Source of the DNA: Octopus vulgaris
Taxonomy: Eukaryota
Length of the DNA: 64,000 nucleotides
Assembly (NCBI GenBank): GCA_951406725.2
Contig: OX597822.1
Coordinates: forward strand, 24,986,001 to 25,050,000
Reading direction: 5' to 3'
Below the pieces are notes generated by a model. The model was not told the origin of the DNA and searched no databases. It was given only the letters and a program-made list of their open reading frames with translations. The translations under genes and the position numbers were made by a program. Of the stretch, positions 157 to 62,272 are shown in pieces; position 1 is the first letter of the stretch; each line of letters begins with the position of its first letter.

Positions 157-557
157 TGGCAGAATCGTTAGCACGCCGGGCGAAATGCTTAGCGGTATTT
201 CGGTTGCCGTTAAGTTCTGAGCTCAAATTTCGCCGAGGTCGACTTTGCCTTTCATCCTTTCCGGGTCGATTAAATAAGTACCAGTTGCGCACTGGGGTTG
301 ATATAATCGACTTAATCCGTTTGTCTGTCCTTGTTTGTCCTCTCTGTGTTTAGCCCCTTGTGGGTAGTAAAGAAATAGTTATTTCGGCTGCCTATAAGTT
401 CTGAGCTCAAATTTCGCCGAGATCGACTTTGCTTTTCATTCTTTCAGGGTCGACTAAGTAAGTACCAGTTACTCACTGGGGTCGATGTTATCGACTTAAT
501 CCCTTTGTCCTTGTGTGTCCCCTCTATGTTTAACCCCCTGTGAGCAATTAAGAAATA
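157..557 (+). mobile_element. SINE family A, tandem dimer; both units end in the 'long' tail (...GCCCCTTGTGGGTAGTAAAGAAATA)
   Basis: Pol III-like head (TGGCAGAATCGTTAG; GAGCTCAAATT, cf. GAGTTCAAATTCC in other copies) and core GTCGACTTTGCCTTTCATCCTTT...AAGTACCAG...CTGGGGTCGAT shared with many copies in the window. The second unit restarts at ~378 without a head. Confidence 0.85.
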
Positions 558-3352: not shown

Positions 3353-3804
3353 GGCGTCAAGCTGGGAAAATCGTTAGCACACTGGGCAAAATGCTTAGCA
3401 GTATTTCGTCTGTCTTTGCGTTCTGAGTTCAAATTCCACCGAGGTCGACTTTGCCTTTCATCCTTTCGGGGTGGGGTGGGGGGTAAATTAACTACCAGTT
3501 GCGTACTGGGGTCGATCTAATCGACTGGCCTCCTCCCAAAATTTCGGGTCTTGTGCCTAGAGTAGAAAAGTTTATCAATTATTATTATATTTAAGGCGGT
3601 GAGCTGGGAGAATCGTTAGCACGCTGGGTAGAATACTTAGCGGCATTTCGTTTATCTTTATGCTTTGAGTTCAAATTCCATCGCGGTCGATTTTGCCTTT
3701 CATCCTTCCAGGATCGATAAAATAAGTACCAGCTGCAAATTGAGGACGATGTAATCGACTATCCCCTCCCCCAAATTTCAGGCCTTGTGCCTATAGTAGA
3801 AAGG

Positions 3805-3851
<47 letters not shown>

Positions 3852-13944: not shown

Positions 13945-14760
13945 GACGCAGCGGATTGGCAGAATTGTTTAAGAGTTGGATGAATTGCTTTGTATCATTT
14001 GTTCCGTCTCTTTATGTCGTGAGTTCAAATCCCGTGTCAATACAATACAGTACCAGTGAAATACTTGAATGGAAGTTGTCGGCTAAAACGCTTCCGTCAA
14101 AATTGCTGGCTTTCGGTCTAAATCCGAAACCATTATTTATTTCTTTATTGCCCACAAGGGGCTAAACATAGAGGGGACAAACAAGGACAAACAAAGGGAT
14201 TAAGTCGACTACATCGATCCCAATGCGTAACTGGTACTTATTTAATCGACCCCGAAAGGATGAAAGGCAAAGTCGACGTGGGCGGAATTTGAACTCAGAA
14301 CATAACTGCAGACGAAATACGGCTATGCATTTCGCCCAGCGTGCTAACGACTCTGCCAGCTCGCCGAAGGCGGCGAAGTGGCATAAACGTTAGCACGCCA
14401 GGCGAAATGCGTAGCCGTATTTCGTCTGCCGTTACGTTTTGACTTTGCCCTTCATCCTTTCGGGGTCGATTAAATAAGAACCAGTTACGCACTGAGGTCG
14501 ATGTAATCGACTTCATTTCTTTCCCCAAATTTGAGGCCTTGTGCTTCCAGTAGAAAGGATTATTAGTTAGGTGGCGAATTGGATTGCTTGGCAGTATTTC
14601 CGTATTTACGTTCTGAGTTCAAATTCCACCAAGGTCAACATTGCTTTCGTTCTTGATGAAATAAGTACCAGTTAGAGAACTAGAGTCGATGTAATCGATT
14701 ATCCCCTTCCCTCTCCTTGTGCTTATAGTAGAAAGGATTATTATTATTATTATTATTGAT
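13945..14760. mobile_element. SINE A cluster with a long-tail minus copy (14138-14366) head-to-head with a plus copy (from 14369)
   Basis: Junction CTGCCAGCTCGCCG-AA-GGCGGCGAAGTGGC, with family core on both sides. Confidence 0.85.
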
Positions 14761-22297: not shown

Positions 22298-22344
<47 letters not shown>

Positions 22345-22346
22345 CA

Positions 22347-22530
22347 TATCGCTAGCCACTACACATTCTCTATTTTCTCTCCTTGTTTCTTTCTGTGTTC
22401 CTTTCTGTGGAAGAGCGTAGGCTCGAAACGTTAAAGATTTTTTCACTTTCCGAATGTTATACTAATACATCTATTTGTTGTCTACACCACCTATCTTCGT
22501 CTTTTGTTTTTTTTTTTGTGAATTTTCCCT
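22347..22530 (+). mobile_element. Penelope pLTR-like repeat containing a hammerhead-like motif (22401-22436)
   Basis: Highly similar to 45505-45686 and related to 58470-58633. Motif CUUU-CUGUGGA-A-GAGC-GUAG-GCUC-GAAAC-GUU-AAAG. Flanked by (TA)n. Confidence 0.65.
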
Positions 22531-22540
22531 ATATATATTT

Positions 22541-26611: not shown

Positions 26612-27110
26612 AGGCGGCGAGCTAGCAGAGTTGTTAACACGCCGGACAAAATGCGTAGTAGCAAACTTTTCGTCCGTCTGTATGTTCTGCGCTCAAATTC
26701 CACCGTCTGTATGTTCTGCGCTGAAATTTCCCCGAGGTCGACTTTGCCTTTCATCCTTTCGAGGTCGATAAAATAAATACCTATTTCTTTACTACCCACA
26801 AGGGGCTAAACACAGAGATAACAAACAAAGACAGACAAACGGATTAAGTCGATTACATCGACCCCAGTGCGTAACTGGTACTTGATTTATCGACCCCGAA
26901 AGGATGAAAGGCAAAGTTGACCTCGGTGGAATTTGAACTCAGAACGTAACGCCAGACAAAATACCGCTAAGCATTTCGCCCGGCGTGCTAACGTTTCTGC
27001 CAGCTCGCCGTTAAAATAAATACCACTTGAACACTGGGGTCGATGATATCATTTTACCGAGCCCCACTCCCCGAAATTGTTGTCCTTGTGCCTAAATTCG
27101 GATTCTAATA
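26612..27110. mobile_element. SINE A (+) interrupted by a long-tail SINE A (-, 26782-27011)
   Basis: 13-bp TSD TAAAATAAATACC at 26769-26781 and 27012-27024. The host copy resumes after the TSD. Confidence 0.9.
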
Positions 27111-33740: not shown

Positions 33741-34215
<475 letters not shown>

Positions 34216-39314: not shown

Positions 39315-39703
39315 GTGGAGGCGCAATGGCCCAGCGGTTAGGGCAGCGGACTCGCGGTCATAGGATCGTGCTTTCGATTCCCAGACCGGGCGTTGTGAGT
39401 GTTTATTGAGCGAAAACACCTAAAAGCTCCACGAGGCTCCGGCAGGGGATGGTGGTGATCCCTGCTGTACTCTTTCACCACAACTTTCTCTCACTCTTAC
39501 TTCCTGTTTCTGTTGTACCTGTACTTCAAAGGGCCGGCCTTGTCACTCTCTGTGTCACGCTGAATATCCCCGAGAACTACGTTAAGGGTACACGTGTCTG
39601 TGGAGTGCTCAGCCACTTACACGTTAATTTCACGAGCAGGCTGTTCCGTTGATCGGATCAACCGGAATCCTCGTCGTCGTAACCGACGGAGTGCTTCCAC
39701 ACC
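39315..39703 (+). mobile_element. Full-length tRNA-derived SINE (family C) with 11-bp TSD
   Basis: A box TGGCCCAGCGG, B-box-like TTCGATTCCC. TSD ACTCCACAGAT at 39304-39314 and 39704-39714. Confidence 0.9.
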
Positions 39704-43921: not shown

Positions 43922-44134
43922 TATTTCTTTATTACCCACAAGGGGCTAAACATAGAGGGTACAAACGGATTAAGTCGATTACATCGACACCAGTGCGTAA
44001 CTGGTACTTAATTTATCGACCCTGAAAGGATGAAAGGCAAAGTCGACCTCGGCGGAATTTGAACTCGGACCGAAACGGCAGACGAAATACTGCTAAGCAT
44101 TTCGCCCGGGGTGCTAACGATTCTGCCAGCTCGC
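43922..44134 (-). mobile_element. Long-tail SINE A
   Basis: Family match; probable 7-bp TSD CCAAATC on both sides. Confidence 0.85.
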
Positions 44135-44459
44135 CCAAATCGGCGCTCAACCGAATCTGTCATCCATTTCTCTATGAGTGAAATGTAACGAACCAAAGTC
44201 GGAACCTCTATGTAGAAGCATGGAGTTCTAGATATACCAGTCAAATTTTCCTTACCTCAAAACGTACGATACATTACCAAAAAGGATAGGACACATTAGA
44301 TAAAATAGTCTAAGATACCCCATATCTGAAATAAAATGATGGGGCTATTATGGTTCATCTGGGGTGGAATAACAACAACAACAGTAGCAGCAATAGCCAT
44401 TAGCGAACCCCACTGGAATTTCAGTTCTAATTTTTATGTGGATGTAGATATACTACTTA

Positions 44460-44670: not shown

Positions 44671-44847
44671 TGGATAGTTATGTTTGGTGACCATGTTAAT
44701 AATAGCACACAGAGTTGTCTCACCTAATACGTACCCATATCTTCGGTGGATATATCTCTAATGGCGTAGTTTGGCTTCCATGCAACTGGGCCACGCAAGT
44801 ATTGTGGGGGAGGGTATGCTATGTTTATTATTACTACCCAAAATTAA

Positions 44848-45068
44848 GGCAGCGAGCTGGCAGAATCGTTAGCGTACCGGGCAGGATGCTTGGCAGCATT
44901 TCGTCCGTCTTTACGTTCTGTATTCAAATTCCACAGAAGTCGACTTTGCCTTTCATACTTTCGAGATCGATAAAATAAGTGCCAGTTTAGCACTGGGGAT
45001 GATGTAATCGACTTAATCCATCCCCCCAAATTGCTGGCCTTGTGCCAAAATTTGAAGCCATTATTATT
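44848..45068 (+). mobile_element. SINE A, short tail
   Basis: Full family match ending in (ATT)n. Confidence 0.85.
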
Positions 45069-45504
45069 ACCGACTGTTGAAATTGCACGCCCTTAAGAAT
45101 TTTACACCCAGGGTAAACGCCTCTACGACTCCAGCCACACTATACTGCTGTATCTCTCTTAATACATACCCACAACTATGGGTATGTCATTTAATGGGTG
45201 CCCACGGCCTCTAATGGGTATGGGTTACCCACAACTTAGGGAAACTATTTTACTTAATGATTGCTCACACGTTCAGTGGTTATTTCACTAACACATACTT
45301 ACACCTTCAGTGACTCTCTTACGAATACGTAATTACATCTGTGGCGCCTACTCACAAAAACGTAGCCAGAAATTTGGTAGATCAACTGAAGATTGTTAGG
45401 ATCATTTTCAAGCAATTTACCCAGAATGTAATGAATTCCTGTCTAAATGTATTATTTTGGGTATTAATAAACCTGCACAAGACTGAGTATAGTTGCTAGT
45501 ACAT

Positions 45505-45686
45505 AGATCGCTAGCCACTACACATTCTTTATTTTCTCTCTTTGTTTCTTTTTGTGTTCCTTTCTGTGGAAGAGCATATGCTCGAAACGTTAAAGACTTT
45601 TTCACTTCCCGAGCGTTATACTAATACATCTGTTTGTTGTCTACACCACCTGTCTTCGTCTTTTGAATTTTTTGTGAATTCTCCCT
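45505..45686 (+). mobile_element. Penelope pLTR-like repeat with hammerhead-like motif (45560-45595)
   Basis: CUUU-CUGUGGA-A-GAGC-AUAU-GCUC-GAAAC-GUU-AAAG, followed by (TACA)n. Confidence 0.65.
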
Positions 45687-46376
45687 ACATACATACATAC
45701 ATACATACATACATACATACATACATACATACAATAGAATTTTCCAAAGATTCTCCCCCTGAGATTCTTTAGATGAATAGACACTTGGGACTTGGGTGCG
45801 TGCGTCGACAGCTCAACCAACACGAGCCAACTCAACCACACATTTACAAAGAACCGGAACTCTCTTGACTCAAAAAGTCTTGTCGCTTTGTTAGCGACCG
45901 GCTTGAACTCTCTTCAGAACTTAAAACTCAGAAAAACATACATACATACATGCATACATACACAAATATTCATACATACTAATATTGACGGAATTGATGA
46001 TATGGTTCCTTACAGTGATTGACTAGTTACATCTCTGTCGACAGGAATCTCGGAACGAGAAAATATTGATTTTAATCATTGTGAGGAATTATATATTTAA
46101 TTCCCTAAGCACAGGTTGCGGCAAAAAACTTCTCGCATTTAACGGACTTACAAAAGTTTTACCAGCAAACGTATGGTGTGCACCGACTCAAATCATACCA
46201 ATAATTATAAATAAAAAATGGTAAAACATTAGTTATATAAAGGCACCTTTAACATCTGCCCAACTTTATTAGCACTGTCCCAACAGGCATGTAAAAATAT
46301 GAGAGGTCGTTCTATCGCACACTGTACATACTCCAGGCAATGCATTGGGTTCAGTTGCTAGAGATGGCTGTCTAGC

Positions 46377-50775: not shown

Positions 50776-50995
50776 TATTTCTTTACTATCCACAAGGGGC
50801 TAAACATAGAGGAGGACAGACAAACGGATTAAGTCGAGTATATCGACCCCAGTGTGTAACTGGTACTTATTTAATCGACCCCGAAAGGATGAAAGGCAAA
50901 GTCGACCTCGGCGGAATTTGAACTCAGAGCGTAACGGCAGACGAAATACGGCTACGCATTTTGCCCGGCGTGCTAACGTTTCTGCCAGCTCGCCA
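50776..50995 (-). mobile_element. Long-tail SINE A
   Basis: Close reverse-complement match to 61894-62124. Confidence 0.9.
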
Positions 50996-53319: not shown

Positions 53320-53740
53320 TCTTTTCTACTAGAGACACAAAGCCTGAAATTTCGTGGGGAGTGGTTTGTTGATTACATCGACTTCCAGGGTTTAACTGGT
53401 ACTTAATTTATTGACTACGAAAAGGTGAAAGGCAAAGTCAACCACGATGGATTTTGAAGTCGGAACGTAAAGGCGGTGAGCTGGCAGAAACGTTAGCACG
53501 TTGGGCGAAATGCTTAACGGTATGTCGTCTGCCGTTGCGTTCTGAGTTCAAATTCCGCCGAGGTCGACTTTGCCTTTCATCCTTTCGGGGTCGATAAATT
53601 AAGTACCAGTTACGCATTGGGGTCGATGTAATCGACTTAATCCGTTTGTCTGTCCTTATTTGTCCTCTCTATGTTTAGCCCCTTGTGGGTAGTAAAGAAA
53701 CAGGAACGTAAAGCGCTCGAAGAAATGTTGAGAAGAAATT
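53320..53740. mobile_element. SINE A (-) interrupted by a long-tail SINE A (+, ~53472-53702)
   Basis: 11-bp TSD GGAACGTAAAG at 53462-53472 and 53703-53713. Confidence 0.9.
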
Positions 53741-53827
53741 GCTTGTATAAATAATTAGGATTACTAATTTAGGAACAATGCCAACAGTTTTAAGAGGAGG
53801 GTATTACTGATACATCGACTCCAGTCA

Positions 53828-54427
53828 ATTTCTTTATTAACCATGAGGTTGAGAAAAAGAGGAGACGATACGAGGACAAACAAAACAAACATTGGGGTCA
53901 GGGTATCGAATGAGACGAAACGTATGAATAAACAAACAATTAAAATATATACAATGAAATGAGAATGAGTGATTAACAAAAAATGAAGCGGAGGACGCGG
54001 TTGACCCACAAATCATTCTCGTTTAAACAGGTTCTTTCACTCGCAACACACTTTGCGACAGACATTTCTTCTCCAGCCTTATTTTCCGTTTCATGTGGGA
54101 AACGAAAAAGTCGATTAGCTCGAGACTGGAGATAAACATGTCTGTTGCAATTCCTTTCACTCTCGTCTTCCATACTACCTCTTTCGCCACAGCAACTACC
54201 GAGAGAAAACAGACTCACTCCTCCCTATTCAAGGAGGTCGGCGGAACAATCTTAATTACAGATTCGCTCGACAGTTGTACTCTTCTCGAATGCGACAGCA
54301 AGTGTTCGACATAAACCCAGAATTCAGTCACCTTGGGGCGTTGCACAATCGCGTGCAGGACAGATTCACTGTCCCTCTCACATCTTGCACAAACCGGCGA
54401 AGGTGCACACCCATGTATAAAGAGCTT
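53828..54427 (-). pseudogene. Tx1/L1-clade LINE 3' fragment: ORF2 C-terminal zinc-knuckle region (54023-54427) plus 3' UTR
   Basis: Manual translation KLFIHGCAPSPVCARCERDSESVLHAIVQRPKVTEFWVYVE...EE*VCFLSVVAVAKEVVWKTRVK...HMKRKIRLEKKCL. It shows CxxC-E-x3-H-x4-(C>R) and the AKxxxWxxR motif, with one stop at 54215-54217. The 3' UTR ends AATAAAGAAAT. Confidence 0.8.
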
Positions 54428-54761
54428 AAGGTGATTTAGCAGGATCGTTAAGAGCGTCGGATGGAATGTCGTGTGATATTTGTTACGGTTTTCTGCTCTA
54501 TGAGTTCAAATCTCACTGGTTAGATATGCCTTCCATCCGTTCGGGATTGACGAATAAGTACAGAGATTGATTCCTCCCCAACTTCTTGTCTGTCTGTTTG
54601 TCTAACATATAGTAGCAGTGATGAGTTGTTAGAAGGAAGTGAGTGACTTTTCATAATGTACCTCTTCTCAGGCCAGTTACTTTCATAAGATGAGTATGCT
54701 CGCCTTCGCTCTAATCGAGTACGGCACATGTTGATGATAAATGAGAGGGATAGACAGAAAA

Positions 54762-55972: not shown

Positions 55973-56310
55973 ACTCTTTTACTCTTTTATTTGTTTCAGT
56001 TATTTGACTGTGGCCATGCTAGAGCACCGCCTTTAGTCGAGGAAATCGACCCCAAGACATATTCTTTGTAAACCTAGTACTTATTCTATCGGTCACTTTT
56101 GCCGAACCGCTAAGTTACGGGGAAGGTAAACACACCAGCATCGGTTGTCAAGCGATGTTGGGTGGACAAACACAGACACACAAGCATATACACTCACAAG
56201 GCTTTGGTTGGCCCGAGGCTATACTTGCCCAAGGTGCCACGCAGTGGGACTGAACCCGGAACCATGTATTTGGTAAGCAAGCTACTTACCACACAGCCAC
56301 TTTTACGCCA
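55973..56310 (-). mobile_element. SINE B with internal deletions
   Basis: Reverse-complement family match. Confidence 0.85.
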
Positions 56311-57627
56311 TATCTAAAATCTTTTAAGTGCTTAGGGGCTCTGTAGCCATGATGAGATTTGAACTCAGAGTACAAAGAGCCGGAAAAAATACCGCAAGAC
56401 ATTCAGTTTAATATTTTTAAAGTTATGTCAAAACATCTCACAGGATTAGTACATTCTTTTTTCGTTGATCCTAAAATGAGATAAAAAAAAAAGAAGAAAC
56501 CGTTGGCCTCTGGAGGATTTGAACTCAGACCGCAACGCGTTGGAACAAATACTACGAAGTAGTTTGTCCGACTCTCTAAACTATACTGCAAATTCAACGC
56601 CCTGAGTTCAATCCTAATCTTGGAAATTGTTATTGTTATTGCTGTTGTTTGCGCTTGTTTAGCACCAGACCGGCCATGATGGAGCAAATAACAACCAAAT
56701 CTGCATCAGATCATATTCAAACGTGTTAGAAAGAGAAGGACATTTTAGATAACGCAGTCCTGCATAAAGTATGTGTGCATAACAAGAAAAATGGGACGGT
56801 CACAGTTGGAACGTCTTTCATCAGAAGAATGCGCCATGAAACCTGCGGATAAGCAACAGCTACAGCAACAGCATCAATAGTAACAACAAGGAGCAACAAC
56901 AACAACAACAACAACAAAAACGGTAACAACATTGATAGCAACGACAATAACAGTAGCTACAAGAACAACAGCAACGGCAAAAACCACCACCACCACCACC
57001 ACCACCACCATCACCGACACCGCCATAACCAGCACTACAACCCCCCCCCCAACAACAACAATAACAACGCTAATGACAACAGCAGTAACAGCAAAAATGA
57101 GCAACACTAGCAGCTATAATAGTAACATTGACAACAACAACAACAACAGCAATAGTAACAACAGCAGCAGCAGTAGCAGTATCAGTAGCAACAACAACAA
57201 CAACAAGTCGTGTAAGTGCTTCTACGAGCAGAACCGTTGCAGAAAAGAAGCGCAGCTGCAACAATCATTAAACTGCCAGCAGCAAACATGGCACGTCGGG
57301 CAGGGGCAAACGCTCGACCTGCTAAAATACAATATTAGCAGCAAAATCTCTTTAAGAGTACACCCTACCATTGGGTAATGTAGTCCTCAATACACTGTGC
57401 CTGTGTGGTGGTGGTGGTGGTGTCTATAGTGTAGGAGGGTTTCTGAAAGAATGCCTTTGATCATAGGCCTAGTCAATAAGGACTGGTATGAGGTTGAAAA
57501 GGGAGTGGGAGGAAGATGAAAATAAGAGGGATAAGGAAGAGGAGACAGGGAGGAGGACGGGGGGGGGGAGAAAGAGAAGAATGAAGAGGAGAAGGCGGAG
57601 AAGATCAGCAATACGACTTTAGCAATA

Positions 57628-57849
57628 TATCTTTGCTACCCACAAGAGGCTAAACATAGAGGGGACAAACAAGGACAGACAAACGGATTAAGTCGATTAC
57701 ATCGATCCCAGTGAGTAACGGGTACTTAATTTATCGACCCCAAAAGGATGAAAGGCAAAGTCGACCTCGGCGGAATTTGAACTCAGAACGTAACGGCAGA
57801 CGAAAAACAGCTACACATTTCGCCCGGGGTGCAAACGATTCTGCCAGCT
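57628..57849 (-). mobile_element. Long-tail SINE A
   Basis: Family match. Confidence 0.85.
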
Positions 57850-58361: not shown

Positions 58362-58469
58362 ACTGAATTTGTACTCTATAAAAGAATCAAATAACCAATC
58401 AGAAACGATGTAAAATTGTTTTTATAACTGAACATAAACACAAACATTGATAACTGAAATCTACAAGTT

Positions 58470-58629
58470 TTTCATTCTCTCTCTGTTTATTTTCTCTTAT
58501 TCCTTTCTGTAGAAGAGCGTAGGCTCGAAACGTAAAAGACATTTTCATTTTTCCCGAGCGTCAAACTAAAACACTTGCTTGTTGTTCATACACCTCTCTT
58601 CGTCTTTTGTTTTACTTTTATAAATTTCA

Positions 58630-58633
<4 letters not shown>
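58470..58633 (+). mobile_element. Penelope pLTR-like repeat with hammerhead-like motif (58503-58538)
   Basis: CUUU-CUGUAGA-A-GAGC-GUAG-GCUC-GAAAC-GUA-AAAG, ending at (TA)n. Confidence 0.65.
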
Positions 58634-58670
<37 letters not shown>

Positions 58671-61893: not shown

Positions 61894-62272
61894 GGCGGCG
61901 AGCTGGCAGAAACGTTAGCACGCCGGGCGAAATGCTAAGCGGTATTTCGTCTGCCGCTACGTTCTGAGTTCAAATTCCGCTGAAGTAGACTTTGCCTTTC
62001 ATCCTTTCGGGGTTGATTAAATAAGTACCAGATACGCACTGGGGTCGATATAATCGACTTAATCCGTTTGTCTGTCCTTGTTTGCCCTCTATGTGTTTCG
62101 CCCCTTGTGGGTAGTAAAGAAATAGGTATTCCGTCTGCGGCTACGTTCCAAGTTCAAATTCCGCCCAGGTCGACTTTGCATTTCATGCTTTCGGTTGCGT
62201 ACTGGGGTCAATCTAGTCGACTGGCCCCCTCCCCCAAAATTTGGGGCTTTGTACCTAGTGTAAAAAAGAATA
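61894..62272 (+). mobile_element. SINE A dimer: long-tail unit followed by a headless short-tail unit
   Basis: Junction AAAGAAATA|GGTATTCCGTCTG at ~62124. Confidence 0.85.

Follow-up and report, generated by a model that had tools for sequence, protein, structure and literature searches.

The window (the whole 64,000-nt stretch of Octopus vulgaris DNA analysed here) carries three kinds of repeat whose 3' ends resemble one another, which raises the question of what enzyme copies the high-copy SINE among them, SINE A. The initial annotation proposed that a Tx1-type LINE mobilises this SINE together with related non-autonomous elements, and that a short stem near the end of their common tail keeps pairing while its sequence changes. 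All three 3' ends that it quoted are present, in a LINE fragment, in SINE A and in an element embedded in (TATC)n; the names F1 to F6, N3, N4, H1, H2, SINE A and SINE B are working names of this analysis.

53828..54428, minus strand: 5'-truncated F1 LINE copy, comprising the ORF2 end and 3' UTR, from translation and family search
53828..53885, minus strand: tail of this F1 copy, aligning to the SINE A long tail (42 of 58 columns identical)
53839..53850, minus strand: terminal hairpin of this F1 copy, with a 4-nt loop; 3 bp in the family, fourth pair private
33778..34110, minus strand: 5'-truncated 3' UTR of LINE family F2a, inside (TATC)n; 94.9% to L046
61337..61494, plus strand: shorter F2-type LINE 3' UTR piece, inside (TATC)n; 84.5% to L046
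61892..62123, plus strand: SINE A, long-tail form, full length, reference copy

SINE A is 232 nt long and non-coding, and 22 long-tail ends are found in the 204 kb around the window. By eye, its head contains motifs resembling tRNA promoter boxes; ARAGORN reported 0 genes and Rfam 0 matches in the head.

LINE families represented in the window

The LINE fragment at 53828-54428 contains the end of ORF2, with one internal stop and a terminal stop ending at 54023, followed by a 3' UTR of 195 nt, and matches the full-length F1 copy L031 at 82.7%. Young intact F1 copies exist, among them L031, whose ORF1 frame (534 aa) contains a zinc knuckle and whose ORF2 frame (1138 aa) encodes endonuclease, reverse transcriptase (RT) and zf-RVT domains. 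A genome search for F1 gave 2356 candidates, of which 40, the window's own copy among them, were scored and contained 44 matches; 38 of these 44 run continuously from the end of ORF2 through the tail. The tail is thus part of the LINE and not a SINE remnant abutting it, a possibility that the initial annotation had raised. TC-rich runs lie 3' of 28 of the 29 other F1 loci when judged by eye (two of these loci having identical flanks), and 17 of 30 F1 loci pass a strict period test for (TC)n, with the window copy among the exceptions.

The window fragment itself is not at (TC)n, and its tail continues into a degraded short-tail SINE A remnant at 53750-53806 (minus strand). We also note a piece matching the L031 flank at 39553-39695, and a further three-copy repeat in the window at 22343-22538, 45500-45694 and 58461-58668.

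The element inside (TATC)n had been taken to be non-autonomous. Among its 30 best loci the shared DNA continues upstream in most, and an ORF2 homologue is present in 22; one locus (L108) has an 810-aa frame with RT and zf-RVT domains, and the F2a fragment has RVT_1 and zf-RVT. A non-autonomous element is ruled out by this coding family behind it, and the (TATC)n element is a 5'-truncated member of a second LINE family, F2, in which 39 of 47 ends lie at a 4-base repeat.

A 3' tail common to SINE A and the LINEs

The tail of the window LINE aligns to two SINE A copies with scores of 42 and 38. Dinucleotide shuffles score 19.0±2.6 and 20.0±3.2, with 0 of 200 reaching the observed score each time, and among genomic 520-mers 0 of 662 and 1 of 662 do so; the annotated similarity of LINE and SINE tails is therefore above chance. 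With the SINE long-tail consensus the scores are 60-67 for N4, 64 for H2, 48-62 for F5, 43-59 for F2, 42-52 for F1 and 46 for F6, against a maximum of 37 among 662 masked genomic 520-mers. Nineteen of the 24 LINE and ORF1-only 3' ends beat every one of these controls. The remaining five (F4b, N3a, F3old, F3young and N3b) do not, and with one query the score of young F1 is reached by 25 of 200 shuffles, as might be expected if the likeness arose by chance between pyrimidine-rich, A-ended sequences. Chance is nonetheless refuted at the level tested, and we consider it extremely improbable, because so many ends lie above all controls, the best alignment sits at the element's end with no anchor imposed, and the stem covaries (below).

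The closest relatives of the SINE tail differ along its length. Its 5' half is nearest F5 (29 of 30 bases) and its 3' half nearest H1, H2 and N4; F1 aligns along the whole tail (44/59), and the terminal bases are as in F1, N3, F6 and H1. The genomic copies inspected have precise 3' ends without poly(A) runs. A LINE with the exact SINE tail was sought with a pattern requiring letters other than SINE sequence upstream; of its 1238 matches 100 were listed, and the 40 that were fetched comprise two F5-type LINE ends (L176 and L213), the pair L217 and L218, and for the rest SINE variants or truncations.

L217 and L218 lie 44 kb apart on C2 and are near-identical; neither has an ORF2 match, and in both a tail like that of the SINE stands immediately behind short tandem repeats. 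They may represent a LINE with an internal deletion or a segmental duplication.

A covarying terminal hairpin

Single-sequence folds place a short stem at the same position in most consensuses. Of the 20 family consensuses, all form pairs 1-3 and 15 also form pair 4. The first pair is C-G or U-A, the second C-G, U-A or G-C, and the third G-C, A-U, C-G or G-U. Across eight lineages 29 of 32 cells are paired, compared with a shuffle mean of 20.6 and a count matched by 0 of 50,000 shuffles, and slid-partner controls give 11 and 15 paired cells. In an alignment of the 12 of 20 consensus representatives that have 5-nt loops, 97.9% of cells pair, two-sided changes occur at all four pairs and 0 of 500 shuffles match either the paired cells or the covariation score, for what is a tiny stem, with windows picked from the folds of this analysis and shuffles that ignore relatedness. 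RNAalifold returns the same helix. As modelled, then, a 3-4 bp terminal hairpin covaries across families, and the strongest single case is N3, whose A-U-rich stem differs from that of N4 at all four pairs and is fully paired.

The initial annotation had drawn four pairs in each of the quoted tails. In F1 the fourth position is unpaired in the other 29 loci and mismatched in 26 of 26 other scored copies, so that the family stem is 3 bp and the fourth pair belongs to the window copy alone; of 39 copies of the (TATC)n family, 11 close this pair. The three quoted tails by themselves hold little covariation, and the proposal that the stem pairs despite sequence change is clearly borne out only by the wider family set. 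The SINE hairpin equals that of N4 in both stem and loop. F6 has the same stem as the SINE with a loop differing at 2 of 5 bases, F1 differs from it in loop length and third pair, and the SINE loop is also found in F3 and F4.

Two further stems may be noted here. Subfamilies of F5 differ by a U-A to C-G exchange within the stem, and L330 and L386 represent a further family, ~55% to N4 at the C-terminus, whose 3' end has an N4-type stem and a different loop.

Behind the stem most LINE families have an A-rich motif resembling a poly(A) signal, so the hairpin could serve 3'-end formation. It might then have been conserved for processing or stability, with a relaxed LINE enzyme and a SINE tail captured once by template switching, which would accord with the mostly relaxed L1-clade enzymes described in the relevant passages of PMC3472496. 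We regard this as distinctly unlikely, as the genomic copies inspected end precisely without poly(A), and the same end is kept both by a SINE that is likely a Pol III transcript and by ORF1-only elements with otherwise unrelated 3' UTRs.

A target-specific LINE lineage

Further families (F3, F4, F5, F6, N3 and N4) were found by protein, DNA and pattern searches of the host genome, which is 2.8 Gb in size and rich in microsatellites. A degenerate ORF2 pattern (4571 matches, 100 listed) yielded N3, N4, F2b and F2c; it missed F6 and F4, so the list of families is incomplete. Protein searches with outgroup C-termini had mostly F3 among their matches. F3 is young and intact and inserts at (ATT)n, with 35 of 37 ends at a 3-base repeat, and F4, known from two fragments, is found at (TTC)n-like runs. 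F5 (L233, L234, L183-L212, L235-L252) is also young, with intact 1150-aa copies, and inserts at one site in the head of SINE B (35 of 41 ends). N4 has intact 1132-aa copies.

Several of these families show additional structure. Many F3 loci (L123-L152, L223) have intact 1145-aa ORF2 frames, and F3 occurs in head-to-tail arrays of ~5.87 kb (about 5.9), including on the small contigs C47 and C50. Young N4 copies (L311, L345-L360) form 5.26-kb tandem arrays and have 5' ends that resemble the N4 target sequence. The F5 insertion L176 has a 15-nt duplication, and within the window the F5 target type, SINE B, is found at 55975-56316 (minus strand).

Exo_endo_phos, RVT_1 and zf-RVT domains are all present in F1, N4, F5, F3 and N3. 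Among 16 matches to solved structures, none of them CR1, L2 or RTE, the best relative of the F1 ORF2 (L031) is human L1 ORF2p (E 3.5e-71, residues 10-876) and the best R2 match has E 4.4e-23. The annotated origin of the SINE tail in an L1-group lineage is supported, and none of the three outcomes that would have counted against the initial annotation was seen, the clade comparison being with human L1 and R2. No named Tx1 element (Tx1, Keno, Kibi or Koshi) appeared among the protein-search matches, and the closest named relative is an Argonauta hians protein at 61% identity. In trees built without F4, F2b and F2c (long frames absent), the LINE families and the Argonauta protein form one cephalopod clade (100/100), within which N4 and F6 are sisters (100/100). 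A gag-like zinc knuckle in ORF1 is a feature of the Tx1 clade. The F1 ORF1 has a zf-CCHC match (E 1.2e-4), and the N4 ORF1 tested, 35% identical to that of F1, gave no Pfam match. F2, F3, F5 and F6 all lie at repeat targets, and a preference for repeats is described for the Tx1 clade in the passages of PMC4494074 on target choice. The lineage is thus a target-specific member of the L1 group and likely Tx1, a label that follows from domain layout and from repeat targeting as in those passages.

ORF1-only relatives

Upstream of N4 copies, often in tandem, lie units of 1.7-1.9 kb. Each has a single frame of 418-511 aa, which includes a zinc knuckle and is 29-41% identical to the ORF1s, and a search of eight stretches of 6.2-6.7 kb around them gave no ORF2 match. 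One kind, H2, matches N4 over its last ~45 nt and agrees with the SINE at 41 of 47 bases. Its UTR is otherwise only loosely alignable, and such retention of the end is expected under stringent recognition. These ORF1-only elements are true non-autonomous relatives, and the related elements that the initial annotation had sought in (TATC)n are thus present elsewhere in the genome.

Loci L365-L372 contain tandem arrays of at least two kinds of ORF1-only element, stacked with N4 at a common site and carrying the structured tail.

Insertion of SINE A into its own head

Besides the reference copy, the window contains the following SINE A copies:

62125..62194, plus strand: second SINE A unit, nested, running from head position 50 directly behind the tail of the reference copy
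157..556, plus strand: long-tail copy (157-376), then a unit from near position 50 (380-556, 79.6%, more diverged)
26783..27014, minus strand: long-tail copy with target-site duplication
53471..53700, plus strand: long-tail copy with 12-nt target-site duplication, 128 nt from the LINE fragment and on the opposite strand
14139..14366, minus strand: long-tail copy
43923..44135, minus strand: long-tail copy
50777..50994, minus strand: long-tail copy, then a dinucleotide run
57627..57849, minus strand: long-tail copy
44843..45075, plus strand: short-tail form, with the same body and another tail; same-sized hairpin with one pair swapped

Target-site duplications of at least 9 nt flank 7 of 16 non-nested near-full-length copies (control rate 0.6%). 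The sequence 3' of the tail was recorded for 40 long copies, made up of the ends in the 204 kb and of incidental copies in loci picked by LINE queries. In 17 of these 40 a SINE head follows, entered at position 50 in 15 and at position 17 in 2; the other 23 stand before dinucleotide runs (3) or before other DNA with a loose motif (20). Only 47 such head segments occur in the 204 kb, which excludes chance as the source of these landings. A pattern for interrupted heads gave 132 matches, and 9 of the 30 that were fetched (8 places) hold a full-length SINE nested at position 50 with a duplication. SINE A is site-biased and lands in its own head at position ~50.

Repeated insertion of this kind would give stacks. 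In 70 stacks examined, the downstream unit is long in 42, of one or other of two short types in 16 and 4, and unassigned in 8. Downstream units stand at 91.5% and upstream units at 94.7%, and the downstream unit is the more diverged in 43 pairs versus 13 (p 1.8e-5), in a set biased by loci picked with SINE queries and with short-type units scored against the long consensus. The mixture of types and the greater divergence downstream fit repeated targeting. Stacks could also descend from one dimeric master or from tandem duplication, and most of them do show no duplicated head, which a multimeric master would explain, while L269 and L285 look like re-copied composites. Such an origin is improbable given that the downstream units are of mixed kinds and more diverged, that full-length nested copies with duplications exist, and that an autonomous LINE, F6, uses the same site.

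A more complex arrangement is seen in L378 near position 230, where a SINE A head (position-50 site) is followed by a putative 5S rRNA-like sequence and then by another SINE head; this is possibly a template-switch product. The short-tail SINE A forms (window 3594-3812 and 44843-45075; L258 and L262) share the loop of the long form but differ from it by a swap of one stem pair, and they end within (ATT)n runs or next to them.

The N4/F6 branch as probable partner of SINE A

The window family F1 was the partner implied by the initial annotation, and it has the common terminal bases, an alignment over the whole SINE tail and intact young copies (L031) in its favour. It differs from the SINE in loop length and third pair, has a run of five T in its tails (the longest T run is 3 in 131 of 175 SINE A copies), and favours TC-rich targets, before which none of the 22 long-tail SINE A ends in the 204 kb was found. 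As the partner, F1 is largely refuted by the target data and is very improbable.

A closer match in target is provided by F6, a family recovered via L380, where it lies beside another insertion in an interrupted SINE head. A search for F6 gave 559 candidates, of which 30 copies were checked for site and 20 extended. Twenty-eight of the 30 end at SINE A head position ~50, and in 8 of the 20 extended copies the 5' junction itself falls within a SINE head and a 16-nt duplication is present; 1 further copy has a head upstream of it, and for the other 11 the search window contained none. F6 and the SINE both insert at the same point of the SINE head, duplicating ~16 nt, and at the 3' junction the older F6 copies L411-L417 are in exactly the same register as the SINE. 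None of the 20 F6 copies has an intact ORF2, the longest being 1101 aa. N4 uses other targets, with 0 of 38 fetched copies ending in a SINE A head.

The other insertion in L380 (minus strand, from ~257 of the reversed locus) is an N3-like LINE, 68-78% to N3 over longer stretches, which begins right behind a SINE A head, ~13 bases 3' of the F6 site. It is possibly another SINE-targeting family.

Judged from these sequence relationships, long-form SINE A, with a ~60-nt tail common to L1-group and likely Tx1 LINEs, is probably copied by an ORF2 of the N4/F6 branch that reads the predicted 3-4 bp hairpin; F1 would be an unlikely partner, and the branch whose member F6 inserts in the SINE head the more likely one. 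Some observations weigh against this branch: the F6 tail score of 46 equals that of the window F1 copy, the best fit to the 5' half of the SINE tail is F5, which targets another SINE, and F6 is nearly exclusive to its site whereas 23 of 40 SINE copies are found at other places. As the whole tail is matched by none of the families sampled, most copies probably owe their spread to an older member of the branch or to one outside the sample.

The tail might instead be a lineage-wide signal, with N4, F6, F5 and other families mobilising the SINE in turn or in parallel. The mosaic look of the SINE tail (5' half as in F5, hairpin as in N4, terminal bases as in F1, N3, F6 and H1) is in keeping with several drivers, as are the use of two head sites, loose sites and dinucleotide runs and the recurrence of the same loop in F3 and F4; but by eye none of the 22 long ends in the 204 kb stands before the (TC)n, (TATC)n or SINE B sites of F1, F2 and F5, and we consider this reading rather unlikely. 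For the short-tail SINE A, one form scores 35-37 against F3 tails, a level reached by 3 of 662 controls, and the other gives no signal; a partnership with F3 is possible, though weakly supported.

The simplest scenario, returning to the N4/F6 branch, is that this branch was the source of the SINE tail and that most copies spread through members of it that are older or lie outside the sample. SINE A would be transcribed by Pol III, the long form mostly avoiding runs of four T, and ORF2 would bind the hairpin at the RNA end in place of poly(A). By analogy with L2 elements, target-primed reverse transcription would start at a fixed point just 3' of the hairpin, which would explain the precise ends without poly(A). 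The endonuclease would nick the SINE head at position ~50, and in most nested copies the 5' end would be resolved by pairing with the identical target head, giving stacks of the form head-body-tail-(body-tail)n. Read-through RNA from nested copies may also anneal to the nicked target and reinforce the bias, and the SINE would be passenger and landing site at once. More broadly, an animal Tx1 lineage may have kept structure-based, poly(A)-independent recognition through a radiation of targets, with one branch locked in a loop with its SINE through capture of the tail and cutting of the SINE head, in a three-tier system of LINE, ORF1-only element and SINE; we hold the case for this larger picture to be evenly balanced.

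Relationship to known systems

The comparisons that follow refer to those passages of the cited papers that deal with the elements named. In crocodilians, the SINEs of the SINEU and Tx1-Mar system are inferred to be mobilised by Tx1 LINEs from a common target preference (Kojima 2015, PMC4494074), and that system resembles the present one in having tandem insertions at one site and Tx1 families that target another transposon. It differs in that SINEU ends in poly(A), no LINE with the 3' end of SINEU-1 was found there, and the Tx1-Mar target is a Mariner element, whereas here the target is the passenger SINE, with a homologous and structured tail. F1 prefers (TC)n like Kibi, and F4 lies at (TTC)n-like runs like Koshi; this likeness to the crocodilian microsatellite-specific Tx1 elements is one of target, and here a single cephalopod clade is found on (TC)n, (TATC)n, (ATT)n, two SINE heads and other repeats.

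ZmSINE2/3, paired with LINE1-1_ZM, and the members of an algal L1-clade pair (Ohshima 2012, PMC3472496; PMC3747384) likewise have a conserved 3' end of ~45-50 nt that is common to LINE and SINEs, and compensatory changes are seen in the hairpin within it. The LINEs there are L1 elements of plants and an alga, compared with an animal target-specific lineage here; L1 tails account for only 3 of 58 SINE/LINE pairs in these sources, from plants and an alga, and Tx1 is mentioned in PMC3747384 only within phylogeny passages. For ZfL2-1 and ZfL2-2, experiments showed that ORF2 reads the stem generally and the loop specifically (Hayashi 2014, PMC4176376); these belong to the L2 clade, whereas recognition of the smaller octopus hairpin is inferred. 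HAL1, HeT-A and Ag-Sponge are ORF1-only elements (PMC5786205), encoding only an ORF1-like protein as do the units in L365-L372, which differ in carrying the structured tail of the lineage and in stacking with N4 at one site.

The octopus SINEs OR1 and OR2 are abundant and tRNA-derived (Ohshima and Okada 1994, via PMC4824008 and PMC4758252), and SINE A may be one of them, a likeness that is by description; no partner LINE for OR1 or OR2 is named in the passages of these two papers that describe them. In the parts of octopus repeat surveys that treat these families, both L1-Tx1 and SINE families are listed but not paired with each other (PMC13282606, PMC8967140). The pairing of SINE A with a Tx1 lineage, and a LINE that targets its own passenger SINE, were not found in the open full-text papers searched; the Zenodo library of PMC13282606, Repbase, Dfam, SINEBase and the supplements of these papers may already contain these families or the pairing.

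In the system described here, the proposed self-targeting loop is the more striking part. Enzymes of the L1 group are the textbook relaxed type, and a hairpin that covaries across animal target-specific families would show stringent recognition on the Tx1 side of this group. With young intact copies of N4, F5, F3 and F1, the proposed shift from stringent to relaxed recognition could be tested on naturally occurring variants of stem, loop and target. If the proposed partnership is true, a likely driver is named for one of the commonest repeats of the octopus genome, and the passenger SINE multiplies the landing sites of the LINE that drives it.
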